Positions 4,894 to 13,519 of a stretch of DNA of 64,000 nt are shown here, piece after piece (within the stretch, counting starts at the first letter, position 1; each line of letters begins with the position of its first letter). A program made the translations under genes and the position numbers. Source of the stretch: an uncultured bacterium. Its GTDB lineage: Bacteria > Acidobacteriota > Thermoanaerobaculia > Multivoradales > JAHZIX01. Location: assembly GCA_965368975.1 (NCBI GenBank), contig CBDUPA010000003.1, forward strand, positions 320,001 to 384,000, read 5' to 3'. The notes beneath the pieces are model-generated. The model did not search any database. It had not been told where the DNA came from and saw nothing but the letters and a program-made list of their open reading frames with translations.

Positions 4894-5766
4894 ATGAGGC
4901 CGAATTCATCCGCGATCCGCGTCGTGGGTCTGTTGACGTTGTGTGGTCTGCTGGCGCTGCCGGCGCTGGCCAACACCGGTGTGGCATTCGTCCATGGCAC
5001 CGGCAATCAGACAGATGCCCTGAACGACTACTGGAAGAGTGACTTCGTCAACTCTGTACGCCAGGGATTGTCCAACAGTGCGAACTACACGGTGATCAAC
5101 TGTCAGTTCGAGGAGTACATGTGGGACTCCCAGGCCGCCGGATGCCTGGCGGGCTATCTCTACAACTTCATCACCAGCAAGAACATCGACGACTTGGTGG
5201 TCATCACGCACTCAAATGGTGGCAACGTGATGCGCTGGATCCTGTCCAACCCGACCTGGGACAGCCGCTATCCGACGATCATCAACAACACCCGCTGGGT
5301 CAACGCGCTGGCACCATCGAGCTTGGGCACGCCGCTCGCCGATGCCGTGATGAGTGGCTCGATCTTCGAAGCGGCGGTCGGCTGGTTGCTTGGTTATCAG
5401 AGCGACGCTGTGCGCATGCAGCAGACGTCGTGGATGGCCTACTACAACTCGACCTACCTGCTCGGTACGTCCGGCCGTCCCGCTCTACCGAAGGGTTTCT
5501 GGAACGTTGTTGGTACCGACGTCGAGACCGCGATTTGGGATGGGGACAGCTACTGCGGTGGTTACGACCTGAACCTTGGGCTCGAAGTGACGCAGGCCTG
5601 GCTCGCCAGCTGCTCGGATGGGTTCCTCGAGTGCACTAGCCAGGCGGGAGCCGGCTCGGTCTGGTTCTATGACACCAGCGTGACGGCTGGTGGCGAGCCG
5701 CTGAGCCACAACCAGAGCCGGCGCAAGTGCTTCAACCTCGACGTCATTCTGCGCAACGACCTGTGA
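4894..5766 (+). CDS. Secreted alpha/beta-hydrolase (lipase-like)
   Basis: Signal peptide ending ALA-N; oxyanion motif FVHGTG; nucleophile elbow THSNGG; later SDG and SHNQS candidate Asp/His; strong RBS AAGGAGG. Confidence 0.8.
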   Translation: MRPNSSAIRVVGLLTLCGLLALPALANTGVAFVHGTGNQTDALNDYWKSDFVNSVRQGLSNSANYTVINCQFEEYMWDSQAAGCLAGYLYNFITSKNIDDLVVITHSNGGNVMRWILSNPTWDSRYPTIINNTRWVNALAPSSLGTPLADAVMSGSIFEAAVGWLLGYQSDAVRMQQTSWMAYYNSTYLLGTSGRPALPKGFWNVVGTDVETAIWDGDSYCGGYDLNLGLEVTQAWLASCSDGFLECTSQAGAGSVWFYDTSVTAGGEPLSHNQSRRKCFNLDVILRNDL

Positions 5767-5780
5767 GAAGGAGAGTAGAG

Positions 5781-7067
5781 ATGTCACGCAACTTCGTCTG
5801 GACCTTACCTGTTCTGCTTCTTGCCCTGCTTCTTGGGCTGGCCGTCCTGCCGGCTTCCGCGCAGCGCGAGACTCACGCCTCCCGGACCACCCCTGGTGAT
5901 CTGATCGATCCCGCGGAGATCGCTGTTCCTGCCAATCGCCCCGATGTCAGCCGCGAGGCGGTGACCTTCACCTGGGCGCTCGATCCGGCGCACGAGATCG
6001 GCAAGGACGAGCCGACGTATCCGGTGGCGTATAGCCGGCAATATTGGCTGCGCGTCACGCCCGAAGAGCTGCGTGCAGGTGTGGCTCTACCGACCACCTC
6101 GGCCGGCGCGCTAGTGCGCGTGCAGAGTTTCGACGTCGATGGCGATGCCCGTCCAGTCGACATCGACGCCCTGCGCGTCGCCACCCCCGCCGGCGAGCTC
6201 TTGGTACGTGGCGCGGCGATGGACCTGCTGATCGACGCCGAGAAGATGGACGCCGCGAGCACGCCGTTCGCTACCGGTACCGCAGCCTTCCGGCTGCGCG
6301 GTGACCTGGGAGCGGGGGAGTTCGTGGTCAGCGGTGAGGTTTTCGACGCTGAGAGCCAGCGGGAAGATCCGGGTGCCGACATCGACAGCATCCTGTTCCA
6401 CGTCTTCGAGCCAAACAGTGACGCGGTGCTGGCCCTGGCTGCCAACCAGGGCCACTTTCTGCACAACAGCGTGGCTCGCTTCACGGTCGAGTTGCAAGCT
6501 GAGGACGTCACTTCCGTTGCCCAGATCGACGGCTTTCTCGCCGCGCCTTCCGGCCAGGCCTGGCCGGTGACCTTCACGCCTGCTGCTGACGGTGCCTACG
6601 TGGCGCGCGTGCCGCTGAACGCCAGTGGCGAAGCGGGCTACCGAGGGTTGTGGCAGGTCGAAGCCGTGGTCGAGGGAGACGCGAATGGCCAGCGCGTACG
6701 GCGCGCGGTGCACACGGCCTTCGCCGTCGCACTGCCGACTGCTCGTGTGACGGATGTCGCACGCCAGCGTCAGGACGGTGTCCGCACCGTGGATGTCGGC
6801 GTAGAGGTTGCCGTCGAAGGTCGCTACGAGGTGCGCGCGGTAGTCTATGGCACGAACACCGAAGGGCAGCTACGGCCGCTGGCAGCGGCGCACAGCGCGG
6901 CATGGCTGGAGCCGGGCGAAGGAACCCTGAGCCTGGGCTTCGATGCCCAGGCCCTGGCGCGCGAGGGCTTCGGAGCGCCGTTCGAAGTACGAGATCTGCG
7001 CCTGATCGACCAGGGTCGTATGAGCCTGCTGCAGGAGCAAGCGCGCGGTCCGCGTTTCGATAGCTGA
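5781..7067 (+). CDS. Secreted DUF4785-like Ig-fold protein
   Basis: RBS AAGGAG before ATG 5781; signal peptide; SRQYW, VFEPNS, GRYEVRAVVYG, AAWLEPG and APFEVRDLRLIDQGRM match the DUF4785 pattern as I recall it; 14 bp behind the lipase-like gene. Confidence 0.75.
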   Translation: MSRNFVWTLPVLLLALLLGLAVLPASAQRETHASRTTPGDLIDPAEIAVPANRPDVSREAVTFTWALDPAHEIGKDEPTYPVAYSRQYWLRVTPEELRAGVALPTTSAGALVRVQSFDVDGDARPVDIDALRVATPAGELLVRGAAMDLLIDAEKMDAASTPFATGTAAFRLRGDLGAGEFVVSGEVFDAESQREDPGADIDSILFHVFEPNSDAVLALAANQGHFLHNSVARFTVELQAEDVTSVAQIDGFLAAPSGQAWPVTFTPAADGAYVARVPLNASGEAGYRGLWQVEAVVEGDANGQRVRRAVHTAFAVALPTARVTDVARQRQDGVRTVDVGVEVAVEGRYEVRAVVYGTNTEGQLRPLAAAHSAAWLEPGEGTLSLGFDAQALAREGFGAPFEVRDLRLIDQGRMSLLQEQARGPRFDS

Positions 7068-7114
7068 TTCGCCACGAGGTCGCTGTTTCCCGCAGCGGAA
7101 AGCGAGCTATCAGT

Positions 7115-7147
7115 AAGACCCGGGGAGGTTTCTCCCCGGGTCTTTTT
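7115..7147 (+). terminator. Rho-independent terminator
   Basis: AAGACCCGGGGA-ggtttc-TCCCCGGGTCTT perfect 12-bp stem ending in a T run, 48 bp after the DUF4785 stop. Confidence 0.8.
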
Positions 7148-7402
7148 GCATCTAACCGGATCTGAGCTGTCCAGAAATACAAGATTCAAATATTGTCCAG
7201 GCGCTTCATCGAGCGCTGAGACTGTGCTATCTTCCAGCGCATTGTAGGTTTCGGCAAGAGCGGCGACGGAGTGACTCCCGCCGATGCACTCGCCGCAACT
7301 GATCCTCATCTCCATTAGCGCTGGTCCCTATCTGTTTCGGTATATAACTTGTGGTTCTTCTTGGGTCCAAAGCCGTTCCCCTTCCACATGTAAGGAGACA
7401 TC

Positions 7403-7903
7403 ATGCGTCATTCTCTGCAGGGAAGCGCCGCCTGGCTATTGTGTGCCACCGCGGTCCTCCTCCTCTGTGCTGTCCCGGCGATCGCCGCGGACACCACTTC
7501 TGAAGCAGTTCCCACACCCAACAGTCATGTATCCGAGACCGCGGTCGAAGCCGCGCAGATCCCGGTGCTCGACCTGAGCGGGTTCCTGGCCTTCATCGAC
7601 CCCGAGACCGGTGAGTTCCGGGCGCCGAACGAGCAGGAAGCCGCCGCGCTGGCGCAGGCTCTGCGCTTGCCGCAGCAGGCCCTACAGGCTCGTTCGCTAC
7701 AGGCCCCGACCGTCGAGTCCGTTACGCTCGACAACGGTGTCGCTGCCGAAAGTGTGCTGCTCGATCTGAGCAGCGTCAGCTTCAGCGTCGCCCGTGTGCA
7801 AGCCGATGGCAGCGTTGCGTTCGACTGTGGCATCGACCACGATCACAGCGCGCACACGGCCACCGCGACAGACACCAACACCGCCCAGCCGGGTGAAATG
7901 TGA
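7403..7903 (+). CDS. Small secreted protein (post-PEP-CTERM-1-like domain), partner of the downstream peptidase, copy 1
   Basis: RBS TAAGGAG; signal peptide ending AIA-A; core GFLAFIDPETGEFRAPNEQEAAALAQAL; C-terminal QADGSVAFDCGIDHDH; clear paralog at 9811. Confidence 0.8.
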   Translation: MRHSLQGSAAWLLCATAVLLLCAVPAIAADTTSEAVPTPNSHVSETAVEAAQIPVLDLSGFLAFIDPETGEFRAPNEQEAAALAQALRLPQQALQARSLQAPTVESVTLDNGVAAESVLLDLSSVSFSVARVQADGSVAFDCGIDHDHSAHTATATDTNTAQPGEM

Positions 7904-7920
7904 GACCGGGAGCCAAGACC

Positions 7921-9615
7921 ATGAAAAAGCACTTCGCTCTCGCGCTCCCTCTCGCCCTCCTCGCTCTGCTGACGGTGCCGGCCACGCCGGCTGCCGCTAG
8001 CGCGACGATCTTCGTCAACAACCTGGACGCCCCGGGCGTCGGTTTCAATGATCCCACGCCGGTGGCGCCGATCGGCGGCAACCCCGGTACCACCCTCGGT
8101 GAGCAGCGGCTCAACGTCTTCCAGTTCGCGGCAGACGCTTGGGGTTCGGTGCTGGACAGCGACGCCACGATCACCGTGGGTGCTGTCTTCGTGCCGCTGG
8201 GTTGCAGCCCGTTCGCCGCGACCCTCGGCTCGGCCGGTACCTTGCAGGTATTCTCGTTCAACTCGGCCTTCCAGCCGAACATCATTCCCAACGTTTGGTA
8301 CCACGTGGCTCTGGTCAACGCACTGATCGGTTTCGACGCCACGCCGGGTCCGCCGGACCCGTTCCTGGGGTTCGGTAACGACGAGATCTTCGCTTTCTTC
8401 AACAGCGCGATCGACAACAACCCCAACTGCCTGCCGGGTAACTGGTACTACGGCCTGGACCACGACAACGAGCTGATCGACGTCGACCTGCTGAGCGTCG
8501 TCATGCACGAGTTCGGCCACGGACTGGGCTTCGCCAACTTCACCAACGAGAGCACCGGTGCACCGCTGGGTGGCCGCACGGACATCTTCTCGGTGTACAC
8601 CTACGACAAGACCCTGGGCAAGACCTGGGCGCAGATGACCAACGCCGAGCGCCAGTTCTCGGCTGTCAACACCGGTAACGTGGTGTGGGTCGGCCCGAAC
8701 GTCACGGCCAACGCCTCGCGCTATCTTGCGCCGGGCACGGAAGTTGTGAGCAGCGTCGGCACCTTCGAGGCGCAGGGCGCCTTCTTCGGTCCGACTCTGG
8801 ACTTGACCGGCGTCAGTGGCAGCATCGAGCTGGCCGATGACGGCATCGGTGTGGCGACGGATGCTTGCGAGCCGCTGAACAACAGCTTCGCCGGCAACAT
8901 CGCGCTGGTCGACCGTGGCGGCTGCTCCTTCGTCCTGAAGGTGCAGAACGCCGAGGCGGCGGGTGCCAGTGGTGTCATCGTGGCCAACAATCAGCCGACC
9001 GGCCTGCCGCCGATGGGTGGTTCGACGGCGGTAGGTATTCCTTCCGTCGGCATCTCGTTCGACGACGGCAGTCTGGTCAAGGCCAACCTGCCGGGTGTCA
9101 GCGCGACGCTGCGTCAGAGCACCACCGGTCGCACGGGTACCGACATCAACGGCCTGGTGCGGTTGTACGCACCGCCGAGCGTCGCTTCTGGCTCGTCGCT
9201 GTCGCACTGGGATACCTCGGCGACGCCGAACCTGCTGATGGAGCCCTTCATCAGTGACGACCTGACGCCGGCTGTCGATGTCGACCTGACCCGCCACCTG
9301 TTCCAGGACCTCGGTTGGGAGCTGTGTGACAGCGACGGTGACGGCGTGCCGAACGCGGACGACGCCTGCCCGGCTTCTGATCTGGGTGCCACGGTCGTGA
9401 TCGACGGCTGCGACAGCGGCGTCGGCAACCTGCTGTTCGCCGATGGCTGCACGATCACCGACCTGGTGCTCGGCTGTGCCGACGGTGCCGGCAACCATGG
9501 GCAGTTCGTCAGCTGCGCGACCCAGACCGGCAATGGCCTGGTCGCCGCCGGTGTGATCAGCGGTTCCGACAAGGGCGCGATCACCAGTTGCGCTGCGCAG
9601 TCGAGCCTCCCCTGA
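7921..9615 (+). CDS. Secreted PA-domain zinc metallopeptidase (leishmanolysin/M8-like topology) with TSP3-like repeat and Cys-rich tail, copy 1
   Basis: Signal peptide MKKHFALAL; MHEFGHGLGF zinc motif; PA domain (DACEPL...IALVDRGGCSFVLKVQNAEAAGASGVIVAN); distal SHWD...LLMEP; DSDGDGVPNADDACP Ca-binding repeat. Confidence 0.85.
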   Translation: MKKHFALALPLALLALLTVPATPAAASATIFVNNLDAPGVGFNDPTPVAPIGGNPGTTLGEQRLNVFQFAADAWGSVLDSDATITVGAVFVPLGCSPFAATLGSAGTLQVFSFNSAFQPNIIPNVWYHVALVNALIGFDATPGPPDPFLGFGNDEIFAFFNSAIDNNPNCLPGNWYYGLDHDNELIDVDLLSVVMHEFGHGLGFANFTNESTGAPLGGRTDIFSVYTYDKTLGKTWAQMTNAERQFSAVNTGNVVWVGPNVTANASRYLAPGTEVVSSVGTFEAQGAFFGPTLDLTGVSGSIELADDGIGVATDACEPLNNSFAGNIALVDRGGCSFVLKVQNAEAAGASGVIVANNQPTGLPPMGGSTAVGIPSVGISFDDGSLVKANLPGVSATLRQSTTGRTGTDINGLVRLYAPPSVASGSSLSHWDTSATPNLLMEPFISDDLTPAVDVDLTRHLFQDLGWELCDSDGDGVPNADDACPASDLGATVVIDGCDSGVGNLLFADGCTITDLVLGCADGAGNHGQFVSCATQTGNGLVAAGVISGSDKGAITSCAAQSSLP

Positions 9616-9669
9616 GCCTTCCATCCAGCGGCTAGTCGACCCTGACTTGGGGTAGACTGCCGATGAAGT

Positions 9670-9696
9670 GAAGGGCGGTCCTCGTGGCCGCCCTTC
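9670..9696 (+). terminator. GC-rich hairpin after peptidase 1 (possible terminator or processing stem)
   Basis: GAAGGGCGGT...GCCGCCCTTC inverted repeat followed by a pyrimidine-rich tract. Confidence 0.5.
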
Positions 9697-9810
9697 CTTG
9701 CCTCCGATCTGTTCCCTTGTCCCTCCAGCCGGTTCTCTCAAAGTTGCTCGTGGTTGCGATGTGTTTCCCTTTGGGTCCACCCAACTCACTTCCGATGTAA
9801 GGAGAGAACC

Positions 9811-10365
9811 ATGCGTCATTGCATGCAGGGACGTGCCGCTTCGTGGTCGCTTTGGACCGCGGCGGTACTACTGACGCTCGGTGTGACGTCGGCCCGTGCC
9901 GACGAGGCACTAGCAGCCACGAGCGCCGACGAGGCACTAGTAGCCACAAGCGCCGACGAGGCACTAGCAGCCACGAGCGCTGACGAGGCCACCCCAGTAG
10001 CCGAGGTCGCACCAGCGACCCTCGATTTGGGGGGCTTCCTGGCCTTCGCCGATCCCGAGACCGGCGAAGTGCGCGCGCCCAACGCTGAAGAAGCTGCCGC
10101 GCTCGCCCAGGCGCTGGGGAAGCGCGGTGTGCAACTGCACGCCCGCTCCGTCCAGCCGATCCAGGTCCGGACCTTGCCCAACGGCATGGAGGCGGCACTG
10201 CTGGGTCTGGAGTCGGTGAACTTCAGCTTTGCCCAGATCCAGGCGGACGGTTCCGTCGCGTTCACCTGTGGTCTGGATCACGACCACAGCGAAGATGTGT
10301 CCGCCCCTCGGACGGACAACCGCCAGGTCCATCAGCAACGCCGCGCCACGCGGCCCGTGATGTGA
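9811..10365 (+). CDS. Small secreted protein (post-PEP-CTERM-1-like domain), copy 2
   Basis: RBS TAAGGAG before ATG 9811; signal peptide ending ARA-D; GFLAFADPETGEVRAPNAEEAAALAQAL and QADGSVAFTCGLDHDH, matching the 7403 protein. Confidence 0.8.
   Translation: MRHCMQGRAASWSLWTAAVLLTLGVTSARADEALAATSADEALVATSADEALAATSADEATPVAEVAPATLDLGGFLAFADPETGEVRAPNAEEAAALAQALGKRGVQLHARSVQPIQVRTLPNGMEAALLGLESVNFSFAQIQADGSVAFTCGLDHDHSEDVSAPRTDNRQVHQQRRATRPVM
9898..9989 (+). repeat. 27-bp in-frame tandem repeat (3 copies plus a partial), encoding ADEALAATS
   Basis: GCCGACGAGGCACTAGCAGCCACGAGC at 9898, 9925 (2 mismatches) and 9952, with a partial copy at 9979. Confidence 0.9.
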
Positions 10366-10376
10366 GGAGCCACGCC

Positions 10377-12170
10377 ATGAAGAATCTACGCTTCCTCCTC
10401 ACAGCCCTTGTCCTCGTCGCTCTGCTCGCGGCTCCGTCGGCTCCGGCCTTCGGCGACGCGACCTTCATCATCAACAACCTGGATCCACCGGGTGCAGGTT
10501 TCAACGATCCGACACCGGTGGCACCGGTGGGCGGCAACCCGGGGGTGACCTTGGGCGAACAGCGCTTGAACGTCTTCGAGTACGCTGCGGCCGCTTGGGG
10601 ACAGGTGATCGACAGCGACGTTGACATCGTCGTCGGTGCCGTCTTCGTGCCTCTGGGTTGCAGCCCCTTCGCGGCGACCTTGGGTTCGGCCGGCTCGCTG
10701 CAGGTCTTCGCCTTTCCGCCGGGCTTCCTGCCCAACGTCGTGCCGGAAGTCTGGTACCACTCGGCTCTGACCAATGCTCTGGCTGGCTTCGATGCCACTC
10801 CCGGTCCGCCGGACCCGTTCCTTGGCTTCGGCAACGACGAGATCTTCGCCTTCTTCAACAGCGCGATCGACAACAATCCCGACTGCTTGCCCGGCAACTG
10901 GTACTACGGTTTGGATCACAACAACGACCCCGTGGACGTCGACCTGCTGTCGGTGGTGATGCACGAGTTTGCGCATGGCCTTGGTTTTGCCAACTTCACC
11001 AACGAGACGACCGGTGCCCCGCTGGGCGGCCGTACCGATATCTTCTCCGTATTCACTCTCGATACGACGCAGAACAAGACCTGGGCCGAGATGACCGACG
11101 CCGAGCGTCAAGCTTCGGCGATCAATGATGGCAACGTGGTGTGGAACGGCGCCAACGTGACCGACAACGCACCTCGTTACTTGAACGCGCGGCCGCAGCT
11201 GGTGGTCAACAAGCCGTCAGCGTACCGGGCCACCTACCCAGCGCAGGACGCTGAGTTCGGGCCCGCGCTGTCGGACTTCGGCAAGCTCGGCAAGCTGGTG
11301 CTGGCGGACGACGGAGTCGGCGAGGCCGCCGATGCCTGTGAGCCGCTGACCAACAACGTCAATCGTCGCATCGTCCTGGTCGATCGTGGTTCCTGCTCCT
11401 TCGTGCAGAAGGTGCTGAACGCGCAGGCCGGCGGCGCGCGCGCGGTGGTCGTCGCCAACAACCTGCCGGACGGTCTTCCGCCGATGGGCGGCGCCGATCC
11501 GACGGTCACCATCCCGTCCATCGGCGTCTCGCAGGCGGCGGGTGACGATCTCAAGGCGGCACTGGCGTCACTCGACGATCTACGTGTCACGGCAACTGAT
11601 GACGAGAGCGCAGATGCCGACGAGGCGGACAAGTTCTTCTTCGGCGGTAGCGTCGTGGTGACCTTGAACCGCAACCAGGATCTGCGGATCGGTGCCAACG
11701 ATGCCGGGCAGGTGTTGATCTACGCGCCGCCGGTCGTGCAGTCGGGCTCGTCGCTGTCGCACTGGGACACGTCGGCGACGCCGAACCTACTGATGGAGCC
11801 CTTCATCAGTGATGACCTGACACCGGCTGTCGATGTCGATCTGACGCGGCACCTGTTCCAGGACATCGGCTGGCTCCTGGCCGACAGTGATGCTGACGGT
11901 GTGCCCAACGCCGACGACATGTGCTCGGCATCGGACCTGACGCCGACGGTGGTGATTGATGGCTGCGACAGCGGTGCCGCCAACGTGCTCCTGGACGATG
12001 GCTGCAGCGTCAGTGACGAGTTGCAGCAGTGTGCGGACGAAGCCAACAACCACGGTCAGTACGTGCTGTGCGTGGCGGCGAAGACCACGACCTTGTGGCT
12101 GTTCCACATCATCAGCGGCTCGGACGCACTAGCGATCAACGCTTGTGCGCTGCAGTCGAGCCTGCCCTGA
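10377..12170 (+). CDS. Secreted PA-domain zinc metallopeptidase, copy 2
   Basis: RBS GAGGAG; signal peptide MKNLRFLL; MHEFAHGLGF; PA domain IVLVDRGSCSFVQKVLNAQAGGA; SHWDTSATPNLLMEP; TSP3-like DSDADGVPNADDMC; ends QSSLP like copy 1. Confidence 0.85.
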   Translation: MKNLRFLLTALVLVALLAAPSAPAFGDATFIINNLDPPGAGFNDPTPVAPVGGNPGVTLGEQRLNVFEYAAAAWGQVIDSDVDIVVGAVFVPLGCSPFAATLGSAGSLQVFAFPPGFLPNVVPEVWYHSALTNALAGFDATPGPPDPFLGFGNDEIFAFFNSAIDNNPDCLPGNWYYGLDHNNDPVDVDLLSVVMHEFAHGLGFANFTNETTGAPLGGRTDIFSVFTLDTTQNKTWAEMTDAERQASAINDGNVVWNGANVTDNAPRYLNARPQLVVNKPSAYRATYPAQDAEFGPALSDFGKLGKLVLADDGVGEAADACEPLTNNVNRRIVLVDRGSCSFVQKVLNAQAGGARAVVVANNLPDGLPPMGGADPTVTIPSIGVSQAAGDDLKAALASLDDLRVTATDDESADADEADKFFFGGSVVVTLNRNQDLRIGANDAGQVLIYAPPVVQSGSSLSHWDTSATPNLLMEPFISDDLTPAVDVDLTRHLFQDIGWLLADSDADGVPNADDMCSASDLTPTVVIDGCDSGAANVLLDDGCSVSDELQQCADEANNHGQYVLCVAAKTTTLWLFHIISGSDALAINACALQSSLP

Positions 12171-12237
12171 GCCTCAGCTCAGGACCAGCCCTCGACGTGA
12201 ACGCTACTTCCAGGCTCTAAAGGCCTGGGCGTGGAGA

Positions 12238-12261
12238 AGGGCGGCCCACCGGGGCCGCCCT
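12238..12261. terminator. Hairpin between the convergent peptidase 2 and TPR genes
   Basis: AGGGCGGCCC-accg-GGGCCGCCCT perfect 10-bp stem, similar to the hairpin after peptidase 1. Confidence 0.55.
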
Positions 12262-12310
12262 GGAACTGCTCACAGAGTCCGAGACGCTCTCGGCCTGGGG
12301 GGAGGTGGTT

Positions 12311-13519
12311 TCAGCCGGCACCCTTGCGCGCCATGCAGTCTTCCATGCTCGGTGGAATCGCCCCGCGGTTGAGTTCCGCCGTGATCTCCTGGCGGCACGC
12401 CTGCTCGACCCGTTGGCGTCGTTCCTCGGCGTCGAGGCGAGCGTTGTCTCGAAAGATCTGCTCGTTCTTCTCGACTCGCGCCAGCGCGTCGGTATCGCCG
12501 GCCTGCGTATAGGCCTCCTTGGCCTCGTCGAAGTAGTCCGGCTCCGGCAGCTTCTCGTAGATGCTGCCCAGCTGCCGCCAGATCCGTGTCTGCGAGTCTG
12601 CGGGCGCCAGGCCTTGGGCGCGCTTGAGTTCGCTTTCGGCGGTCCTGTAGTCCTGCCTGCCGAGCAGGATCTGGCCGCGGTAGAACGCGGGCTCCCAGGC
12701 CGCCGGATCGGCCTCGGCGGCCTTGCCGAAGGTGCTGAAGGCGGCGTCCTCACGGCCCGCTTGCAACTGCAGGTTGCCGAGTAGGGAGAGCGTCTCGCCG
12801 CTGGCATCGAGGCGGGCTAGTCCCTCGCCGACCGCTGCCGCCCGGCTGTAGGCCGCGGCCTTGCCGGTTTCGGGAGCCTGACGCGCGTCACGGACCAGGG
12901 CGGAGAGATAGAGCCGCTGCGCGTCGGCATCGTCGGGGTCCAACTCGGCGCTGCGTTGCAGAGCTGGCAAAGCCCGCTCCAGATCGCCGTGCCTGAGTTC
13001 CAGCGAGCCATAGGTCCGCTGCAGCTTGGCGTTATCCGGCTCCAGGCGGACGGCGTGGGCCAGATCCGAGAGTGCCTCGGAGGGGTGTCCCGCTTGTAGC
13101 AAGGCTTGGCCCCGAAGCTGATACAGGGTGCCGCGATTGGCTTCGGGCAGCGAACGCGCATCGACCTTGCCCAGGATGGTCGCAGCCTGGTTGGCCTGAC
13201 CGAGTTCGAGGTAGGTGCGCCCGAGCGTCAGCACCGTTGTGCCGTCGTCGGGCTTGAGCTCGTGCGCCCGACTCAGGTGCGCGACGGCATCTTGCTTGCG
13301 GTTCAGGGCGAGCAGCGAACGGCCGAGCATCAGGTGTCCACCGGGCCAGTCTGGTTGCAGGTCGACGACGTGCTGGAAATTCTGTGCGGCGGTGGTGTAG
13401 TCGCCACCACGGAAAGCGGTGACCCCGGTCTGCCAGTCGGCCGCGGCAGGCAAGGCGGTGAGGGCGAGCAGCGCCAGCAGTGGCGCCAGAGTGCGCAGGA
13501 AGTTGGGGGAACGCAGCAT
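12311..13519 (-). CDS. Secreted tetratricopeptide repeat protein
   Basis: RBS AAGGAGG before ATG 13519; signal peptide ending AAA-D; multiple TPR patterns (LGRSLLAL...A...L.P, RGQALLQAG, LGNLQLQAG). Confidence 0.85.
   Translation of the reverse strand: MLRSPNFLRTLAPLLALLALTALPAAADWQTGVTAFRGGDYTTAAQNFQHVVDLQPDWPGGHLMLGRSLLALNRKQDAVAHLSRAHELKPDDGTTVLTLGRTYLELGQANQAATILGKVDARSLPEANRGTLYQLRGQALLQAGHPSEALSDLAHAVRLEPDNAKLQRTYGSLELRHGDLERALPALQRSAELDPDDADAQRLYLSALVRDARQAPETGKAAAYSRAAAVGEGLARLDASGETLSLLGNLQLQAGREDAAFSTFGKAAEADPAAWEPAFYRGQILLGRQDYRTAESELKRAQGLAPADSQTRIWRQLGSIYEKLPEPDYFDEAKEAYTQAGDTDALARVEKNEQIFRDNARLDAEERRQRVEQACRQEITAELNRGAIPPSMEDCMARKGAG

Follow-up and report, generated by a model that had tools for sequence, protein, structure and literature searches.

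A candidate split zymogen: tandem gene cassettes pairing a leishmanolysin-like metallopeptidase with a small secreted protein

We analysed a 64,000-nucleotide (nt) stretch of DNA (hereafter the window) from an uncultured bacterium of the Thermoanaerobaculia. Between positions 7403 and 12170, on the plus strand, it carries two tandem copies of a cassette in which a gene for a small secreted protein is followed by a gene for a metallopeptidase with a PA domain and an HExxHxxGF motif. An earlier note on this DNA had described the duplication and proposed that the small protein is a stand-alone propeptide, inhibitor or folding chaperone of the peptidase, with a zinc switch of the form CGxDHDH. Our results, which are computational throughout, suggest that each cassette probably encodes a zymogen that is split by nature into two proteins, the small one being a prodomain-like factor for latency or folding that acts in trans. 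Both pairs of open reading frames (ORFs) were confirmed (7403-7903/7921-9615 and 9811-10365/10377-12170), and the sequence blocks, the lone Cys of the mature small proteins and the ATGTGA ends in front of the peptidase ribosome-binding sites, all quoted in that note, were read in the sequence. The features of the two cassettes are as follows.

7403-7903, plus strand: small gene 1, 166 amino acids (aa); signal peptide, low-complexity linker and a domain of about 109 aa; NF047450.
7598..7612, plus strand: DPETG motif of small protein 1, a family hallmark as judged from sequence, with invariant Asp.
7826..7828, plus strand: conserved Cys codon of small protein 1 (residue 142, which is C85 of the domain), a proposed zinc ligand.
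7921-9615, plus strand: peptidase 1, 564 aa from the ATG at 7921 (alternative GTG at 7900, overlapping the stop of small gene 1).
8506..8532, plus strand: HEFGHGLGF zinc-binding motif of peptidase 1 (H196, E197, H200).
8854..9072, plus strand: PA domain of peptidase 1 (Pfam PF02225, 67 bits; structural PA-domain matches).
9205..9240, plus strand: third His (SLSHWD, H429) to the Met of the Met-turn (LLMEP, M440), peptidase 1.
9811-10365, plus strand: small gene 2, 184 aa from the ATG at 9811 (longest ORF 9754-10365); NF047450.
9898..9989, plus strand: tandem repeat with a 27-nt unit, 3.4 copies and 92% matches, encoding SADEAL(A/V)AT repeats in the linker of small protein 2.
10051-10065, plus strand: DPETG motif of small protein 2.
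10267-10269, plus strand: conserved Cys codon of small protein 2.
10377-12170, plus strand: peptidase 2, 597 aa from the ATG at 10377 (alternative GTG at 10362).
10962-10988, plus strand: HEFAHGLGF motif of peptidase 2.
11289-11552, plus strand: PA domain of peptidase 2.
11760-11795, plus strand: third His to Met-turn, peptidase 2.

Both small genes end in ATGTGA, and the peptidase ATG follows 17 nt later in cassette 1 and 11 nt later in cassette 2, preceded by the ribosome-binding sites GGGAG and GAGGAG, respectively; peptidase GTG starts overlapping the ATGTGA stop are also possible. The ribosome-binding site TAAGGAGA precedes the ATG of small gene 1 and the ATG at 9811 of small gene 2. Because this site is the same as that of gene 1, small gene 2 probably starts at 9811, the longer ORF from 9754 being overextended. 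The two copies are 51% identical in their small proteins (E 1e-34) and 65% in their peptidases, and the leader of about 50-70 nt located 5' of each small gene is also similar between the cassettes. Since the leader and both genes are alike, the entire unit has been duplicated. The SADEAL(A/V)AT repeats lie between signal peptide and domain in small protein 2 only, small protein 1 having none. A scan of positions 7000-12500 returned no promoter-like site and one terminator-like site, on the minus strand, with no excess over shuffled sequences.

The small proteins share the blocks DPETGE(F/V)RAPN..EAAALAQAL and QADGSVAF(D/T)CG(I/L)DHDH. Both pass the NCBIfam model NF047450 ("post-PEP-CTERM-1 domain-containing protein") with 57.7 and 56.2 bits against a cut-off of 28, as do 18/18 further members of the family that were scanned, while a Pfam search gave no match. 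Their signal peptides end in AIA/AD and ARA/DE, with no lipobox Cys at the cleavage site. A profile of 24 small-domain members retrieved 5698 representatives (50%-identity clusters) at E <= 0.001, 2201 of them at E <= 1e-10; the 150 representatives referred to below are the best 150 of these 5698, all of them 92-225 aa long. The members that were looked up are annotated as 'hypothetical protein' in their source records and come from Acidobacteriota and Lysobacteraceae. Thus, NF047450 is a catalogued family without a function in any source that we found: a limited literature search, the NCBIfam model description excluded, recovered neither a published function nor an account of the pairing of small gene and peptidase. 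The earlier remark that the pairing lacked a known functional description stands in this sense, although the family itself had already been catalogued.

Modelled alone, the small protein was predicted with moderate confidence (predicted local distance difference test, pLDDT, 70; predicted template modelling score, pTM, 0.41) as a hairpin, a helix, four strands and a further helix. A Foldseek search of this model against the PDB gave nothing at E <= 0.001, the best match in a wide VIA-align search had a Z of 3.2, and the ESM Atlas returned clusters of 'hypothetical protein' only. A PepSY-like fold, raised by the helix-plus-four-strand topology, was rejected since nothing supported it. As regards the family name, PEP-CTERM was absent from the 18 small proteins scanned, and the PEP-CTERM models matched 0/32 partner-peptidase homologues at E <= 0.01. 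A TIGR02595 search of this genome gave no match either, which is weak because its control was likewise silent everywhere. The name 'post-PEP-CTERM-1' may reflect other lineages.

Past the signal peptide, neither small protein of the window has any Cys other than that of the second block. The column of this Cys holds Cys in 23 of the 24 aligned members and in 147 of the 150 representatives, and His in the other three, so the conservation on which the proposed switch depends extends to the homologues. From the domain onward it is the single Cys in 136/147 of the Cys-bearing representatives and is therefore without an intramolecular disulfide partner; its exchange only for His is as expected for a metal ligand. 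Moreover, it is retained in divergent partners whose DPETG motif has decayed. The family thus possesses the conserved unpaired Cys that characterizes the pro-segment of a cysteine switch. Another characteristic, an N-terminal position of the pro-segment in the same chain, is absent from the window, where it is a separate gene, and is found only in rare relatives.

The CGxDHDH motif itself was not supported. While the Cys is nearly invariant, the DHDH tail is not general: at least two His occur within 12 residues past the Cys in just 18 of the 147 representatives, although His/Asp-rich tails recur in four of the relatives (L022, L023, L041, L051). In contrast, the Asp of DPETG is invariant, in 24/24 aligned members and 150/150 representatives. 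Judged from these alignments, the family hallmark is DPETG plus the Cys, not DHDH.

Note that the three His-for-Cys exceptions include a copy of this same genome, on contig C1 (pair at C1:236748-238525), where His replaces the conserved Cys of the small protein and the peptidase has no PA domain. In two other representatives, P0139 and P0172, the domain is duplicated in tandem, with two DPETG motifs, and in each of them His occupies the Cys column of the copy that was aligned.

Both peptidases begin with AT(I/F)..NNLD.PG.GFNDP straight after the signal peptide and contain HEF(G/A)HGLGF and SLSHWDTSATPNLLMEP. When 32 peptidase homologues were aligned, H196, E197, H200 and H429 were invariant and M440 was present in at least 90%; HExxH, a distal third His and a Met-turn, as in the leishmanolysin family, are all there. 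The PA domain, recognized by PF02225 in both peptidases (67 and 63.6 bits; gathering threshold 23.9) and by structural PA matches with Z of 11-16, is inserted between HExxH and the third His. In the AlphaFold2 (AF2) model of peptidase 1 (pLDDT 81.8, pTM 0.79), the catalytic domain matched leishmanolysin (1LML) in VIA-align with a Z of 14.2 and a root mean square deviation of 3.5 over 207 aligned residues, spanning model residues 22-479. This was the best match outside the PA domain; the remaining metzincins reached Z <= 7.3, with the matrix metalloproteinases (MMPs) at about 7. The leishmanolysin-type assignment of the earlier note is borne out by this match. The first strand of the catalytic domain in the model comprises residues 30-34, directly after the low-confidence signal peptide. 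Since the catalytic domain begins there, the peptidases have no cis propeptide, as that note had also stated.

Sequence models and searches returned little for the catalytic part. Pfam Peptidase_M8 (PF01457) gave no match at E <= 0.1, and besides PA only a weak Peptidase_M10 match of 13.8 bits was obtained. The model NF038122 (metallo_LGF metalloprotease) scored 32.3 and 29.9 bits, below its cut-off of 80 and mostly over the HExxHxLGF motif, and matched all 32 peptidase homologues weakly. A sequence search for solved relatives found PA-domain matches only, with none for the catalytic part, and a Foldseek list for the whole model was filled by PA domains. As modelled, the peptidase is leishmanolysin-like in fold and active-site layout despite failing the Pfam M8 model. 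At E <= 1e-10 its relatives number more than 5040; their names are 'PA domain-containing protein' or 'peptidase', and most come from metagenome bins of Acidobacteriota or Thermoanaerobaculia.

The peptidases vary in their ends and in the order of their parts. In the window, both finish in a Cys-rich domain of about 90 residues (9360-9612 and 11900-12167), which is confidently modelled and has a calcium-binding-like motif, DSDGDGVPNADD, and six conserved Cys, with no family match found for it. Other peptidase paralogues end in different C-terminal domains, and in the relative L052 the C-terminus is a putative tail of the type IX secretion system (T9SS) type. Six further relatives (L022, L023, L038, L044, L045 and L048) have circularly permuted peptidases, in which the segment with the third His and the Met-turn (GSSVSHWD...LLMEP...DLGW) stands at the front, next to the signal peptide, so that it precedes the GFNDP N-domain, HExxH and the PA domain. 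The complete 630-aa ORF at L044:1432-3321, on the minus strand, contains the Met-turn segment once only. The permuted peptidases are still preceded by a Cys-bearing small gene.

The pairing of the two genes was consistent wherever the small domain was found. This genome has seven NF047450 genes above the cut-off, including a second tandem pair on contig C6, and 7/7 lie directly upstream of a paralogous peptidase gene; with seven such pairs, the cassette arrangement is not due to chance. Altogether, in 44/44 small-domain loci (7 in this genome and 37 in others), the gene that directly follows on the same strand encodes a peptidase homologue, or the domain is fused to one. These loci were gathered as 26 + 16 + 2, the last two belonging to metagenome-assembled genomes (MAGs) of a Lysobacteraceae and of Candidatus Eisenbacteria, so the module spans at least three phyla. 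A frequent occurrence of the small gene without a peptidase, which had been feared as an argument against a dedicated partner, was therefore not seen. A conserved-stretch locus search with the family alignment was not feasible, as no stretch was conserved enough; a single-protein query gave two loci. The small-domain family is present in 21 of the 41 related genomes (this genome plus 40 relatives), and in 16/201 of a sample of the phylum.

The reverse check, in the 41 related genomes, found a small-domain gene or fused domain upstream of 46 of the 49 peptidase places: 40 with an adjacent NF047450 match (by coordinates), five with a divergent small ORF recognized by a profile of our own, and one fused; three had none by hidden Markov model (HMM). 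The gap between small gene and peptidase is at most 17 nt, or the two overlap. In the small genes, the codons of the conserved C-terminal tails (QEVxNDR, EEQ/EEK) double as the ribosome-binding site and overlapping start of the peptidase gene, and translational coupling is therefore tight. Among the seven pairs of this genome, identity is 25-79% between small proteins compared with 49-84% between peptidases.

Directly behind the pair on contig C8 lies an eighth peptidase paralogue (C8:209424-211196). It lacks a small partner, and HDLHH stands in the place of HExxH; from its sequence, it may be an inactive pseudo-peptidase.

Natural fusions of the kind envisaged in the earlier note exist, although they are rare. 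At two of the related loci, L040 and L041, one uninterrupted ORF begins with a signal peptide and continues with the small-domain core (helix, sheet and Cys), a linker of about 45-60 residues and the peptidase. A region-restricted search found four fused proteins of 645-773 aa, among them the record of L040 itself, with the Cys in all. When the small-protein alignment was compared with the fused N-termini by hhalign, the probabilities were 96.7% (E 4.6e-10) and 92.7%. Because the fused relatives carry the domain N-terminally, the small protein is homologous to an N-terminal pro-region. At a third locus, L038, the small domain is fused to a permuted peptidase. Two further candidates, L025 (801 aa) and L027 (779 aa), were rejected as fusions, being high-GC read-through of upstream genes in another frame.

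We then modelled the complex of peptidase 1 (residues 26-475, 32-row alignment), a zinc ion and the 109-residue domain of small protein 1 (24-row alignment), the output being scores and contact residues. The complex scored 0.79 (0.77, 0.79 and 0.80 in the individual runs), compared with 0.02 for the best control. The 0.79 mark was attained by 58/80 solved complexes and by 2/110 mismatched pairs, a calibration that is only rough here since the alignments were our own and unpaired and a zinc ligand was included. The runs agreed in at least 66% of the contacts, with a pLDDT of 57-59 for the partner. Memorisation of a solved complex is an unlikely source of the high score, because no similar solved complex was found. 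The model thus supports binding of the small protein to the peptidase rather than demonstrating it.

On the partner side, the predicted interface consists of strands (residues 45-75 and 81-87, the latter with C85) and the last five residues. On the peptidase side, it comprises the strand 98-115, V193, H196, E197 and H200 of the active-site helix, S428 and H429, and P442-I444 past the Met-turn, together with the PA-domain loops R332-V338 and P364-G367. In this model, the small protein is predicted to sit between the catalytic and PA domains, where it covers the active-site cleft. The predicted contacts include the zinc ligands H196, H200 and H429 as well as the partner's segment 81-87 with its Cys, which may coordinate the zinc in the complex.

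Four computed results (the gene pairing, the small protein's homology to cis pro-regions, the conservation of Cys or His, and the interface over the active site) lead us to infer a scheme that includes inhibition, zinc ligation, help in folding and an activation step. The peptidase would be a metzincin of leishmanolysin-like fold that is secreted, has the PA insertion and lacks a propeptide in its own chain, and the upstream, translationally coupled gene would supply the missing prodomain as a separate protein. Sec would export both proteins. After export, the small protein would associate with the peptidase as a beta-sheet lid across the cleft between the catalytic and PA domains, where its single conserved Cys, or the His of a few members, would ligate or shield the catalytic zinc. 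The peptidase would thereby be kept latent, the partner perhaps also serving as a template for folding, and latency would end when the partner is lost by degradation, dissociation or thiol oxidation. The C8 paralogue, one of the three partnerless peptidase places and the only such paralogue in this genome, has lost HExxH, which we count in favour of the split zymogen. The pro-region homology and the controlled prediction of binding over the cleft likewise favour the earlier proposal of a stand-alone propeptide, inhibitor or chaperone; what did not hold is the CGxDHDH motif by which it was to act.

Several observations weigh against the split zymogen. The model of the small protein is moderate only and resembles no known prodomain or inhibitor fold, and in the complex the pLDDT of the partner is low, with alignments that are unpaired and a zinc that was supplied. 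Fusions are rare, with 0 among the 150 representatives; a single-sequence query with small protein 1 for longer forms also found none, a weak result that was overturned by the genome scans. Moreover, the fused forms do not agree in what they keep: Cys-bearing fusions have no DPETG, while the fused form L049 has DPETG but not the Cys part. The DPETG hairpin, the most conserved element, lies outside the confident predicted interface, which is unexplained; our guess is that it provides an anchoring that a covalent tether would make unnecessary. Finally, the link to PEP-CTERM implied by the NCBIfam name was neither reproduced nor explained.

The alternative that survives best, although we consider it unlikely, is a self-protection inhibitor of the type of the potempins, which are paired with the KLIKK-peptidases of Tannerella forsythia. 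According to PMC9890683, ORFs of 98-132 residues lie there immediately upstream of the genes of secreted peptidases. [quoted passage not shown] Here, the small protein would be a tight binder that stays with the producer cell, in the periplasm or at the surface, while the peptidase escapes upon secretion; it would not be cleaved and would have no role in folding. The small ORF immediately upstream of the peptidase gene, the predicted interface over the cleft and the prevalence of stand-alone forms among the 150 representatives all suit this idea. However, the natural fusions put the domain at the position of a prodomain, and the peptidases here have no cis prodomain, in contrast to the maturation of prokarilysin (PMC9890683) and the N-terminal profragment of mirolysin (PMC8259862). 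Furthermore, unlike the potempins, the small proteins have no lipobox, and their model, with moderate confidence, is a helix plus four-stranded sheet rather than a beta-barrel.

Less probable still is a role as steric chaperone or secretion escort only, similar to that of lipase foldases. The small protein would then be needed for folding or export of the peptidase without inhibiting it, and its Cys would be structural or redox-active. The strict 1:1 linkage with translational coupling fits such a role. The faster divergence of the small proteins relative to the peptidases fits a loosely constrained scaffold, and the partner modelled alone is only moderately ordered. Against this, the predicted interface falls on the zinc ligands and the strand lining the cleft, not on a distal surface, and the Cys/His exchange in one column suggests metal binding. 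In addition, the partnerless paralogue has lost the catalytic Glu, which fits a need for latency more than a need for folding.

We regard as very improbable that the small protein is a substrate or precursor processed by the peptidase to release a product such as the DPETG N-terminal segment, or a non-inhibitory targeting subunit: a substrate would likewise dock in the cleft, and DPETG is the most conserved element (Asp in 150/150) yet outside the confident interface, but the fused relatives drop DPETG and keep the Cys core, a single invariant Cys/His is unexpected for a mere substrate, and no recurring modification or export genes were present beside the pairs in the loci that were read.

The chromosomal surroundings of the cassettes in the window are ordinary: DUF4785, an alpha/beta hydrolase, a TPR protein, DUF1800/DUF1501 and DnaE. 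Two secreted proteins are encoded immediately 5' of cassette 1, a DUF4785 protein of three domains (5727-7067) and one that matches DUF7379 weakly (4894-5766).

Beyond this locus, the class comprises more than 5000 peptidase clusters at 90% identity and about 5700 partner representatives. We advance more tentatively, as somewhat short of an even chance, the wider idea that widespread bacterial leishmanolysin-like metzincins gave up their covalent propeptide, that the single Cys/His of a trans prodomain caps the zinc, and that the cassettes diverge into orthogonal pairs, seven of them here. Such divergence would be open to whole duplicated cassettes, since the protease and the prodomain that switches it each have their own gene. 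If true, this conserved two-gene split would show that a prodomain can evolve into an independent, diffusible regulator, and it would provide a function for the unexplained NF047450, with its thousands of members, whose partner peptidases are now only 'PA domain-containing protein' or 'hypothetical protein'. It would also be a source of ready-made specific protein inhibitors and of orthogonal protease/inhibitor pairs. Mixing the purified proteins, which are separate to begin with, would be a direct test of binding, of inhibition and of the Cys switch.

For protease biology, the cysteine switch and operon-encoded inhibitors are known, and a prodomain encoded by a separate gene would be an addition to them. 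PepSY proteins, the streptopain inhibitor Spi, the lipase foldase Lif and emfourin are earlier examples of a hydrolase with a prodomain-like or dedicated partner encoded next to it. We know of none among them that is a metzincin prodomain split off as a gene, and Pfam and the fold searches showed no similarity between them and the small protein. To our knowledge, the latency of metzincin zymogens is always described, in textbook biology, with a covalent pro-segment in cis, whereas the prodomain of this system seems to have acquired a gene of its own.

As occurs with leishmanolysin (GP63, MEROPS M8), which provided the best fold match, the peptidase has HExxHxxGF and a distant third His followed by a Met-turn. 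It differs from leishmanolysin in its lack of a Pfam M8 match, in the PA insertion and in receiving a Cys-bearing pro-region from a separate gene. The propeptide of GP63, too, has a conserved Cys (HRC[IV]HD), which is implicated in a cysteine switch (bioRxiv 10.1101/2024.02.17.580826). With the potempins, the system shares its gene order, and it departs from them in that the domain is also found fused as an N-terminal pro-region and in that the peptidase has no prodomain of its own. Finally, in mirolysin, Cys23 of the pro-segment, an N-terminal profragment, keeps a metzincin latent (PMC8259862). Like the cysteine-switch zymogens, MMPs and mirolysin, the family described here has a single nearly invariant Cys, with His as its sole substitute. 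In those enzymes, the pro-segment belongs to the same chain and is removed by cleavage, whereas here a second polypeptide takes its place, so that the enzyme could be activated without being cut.

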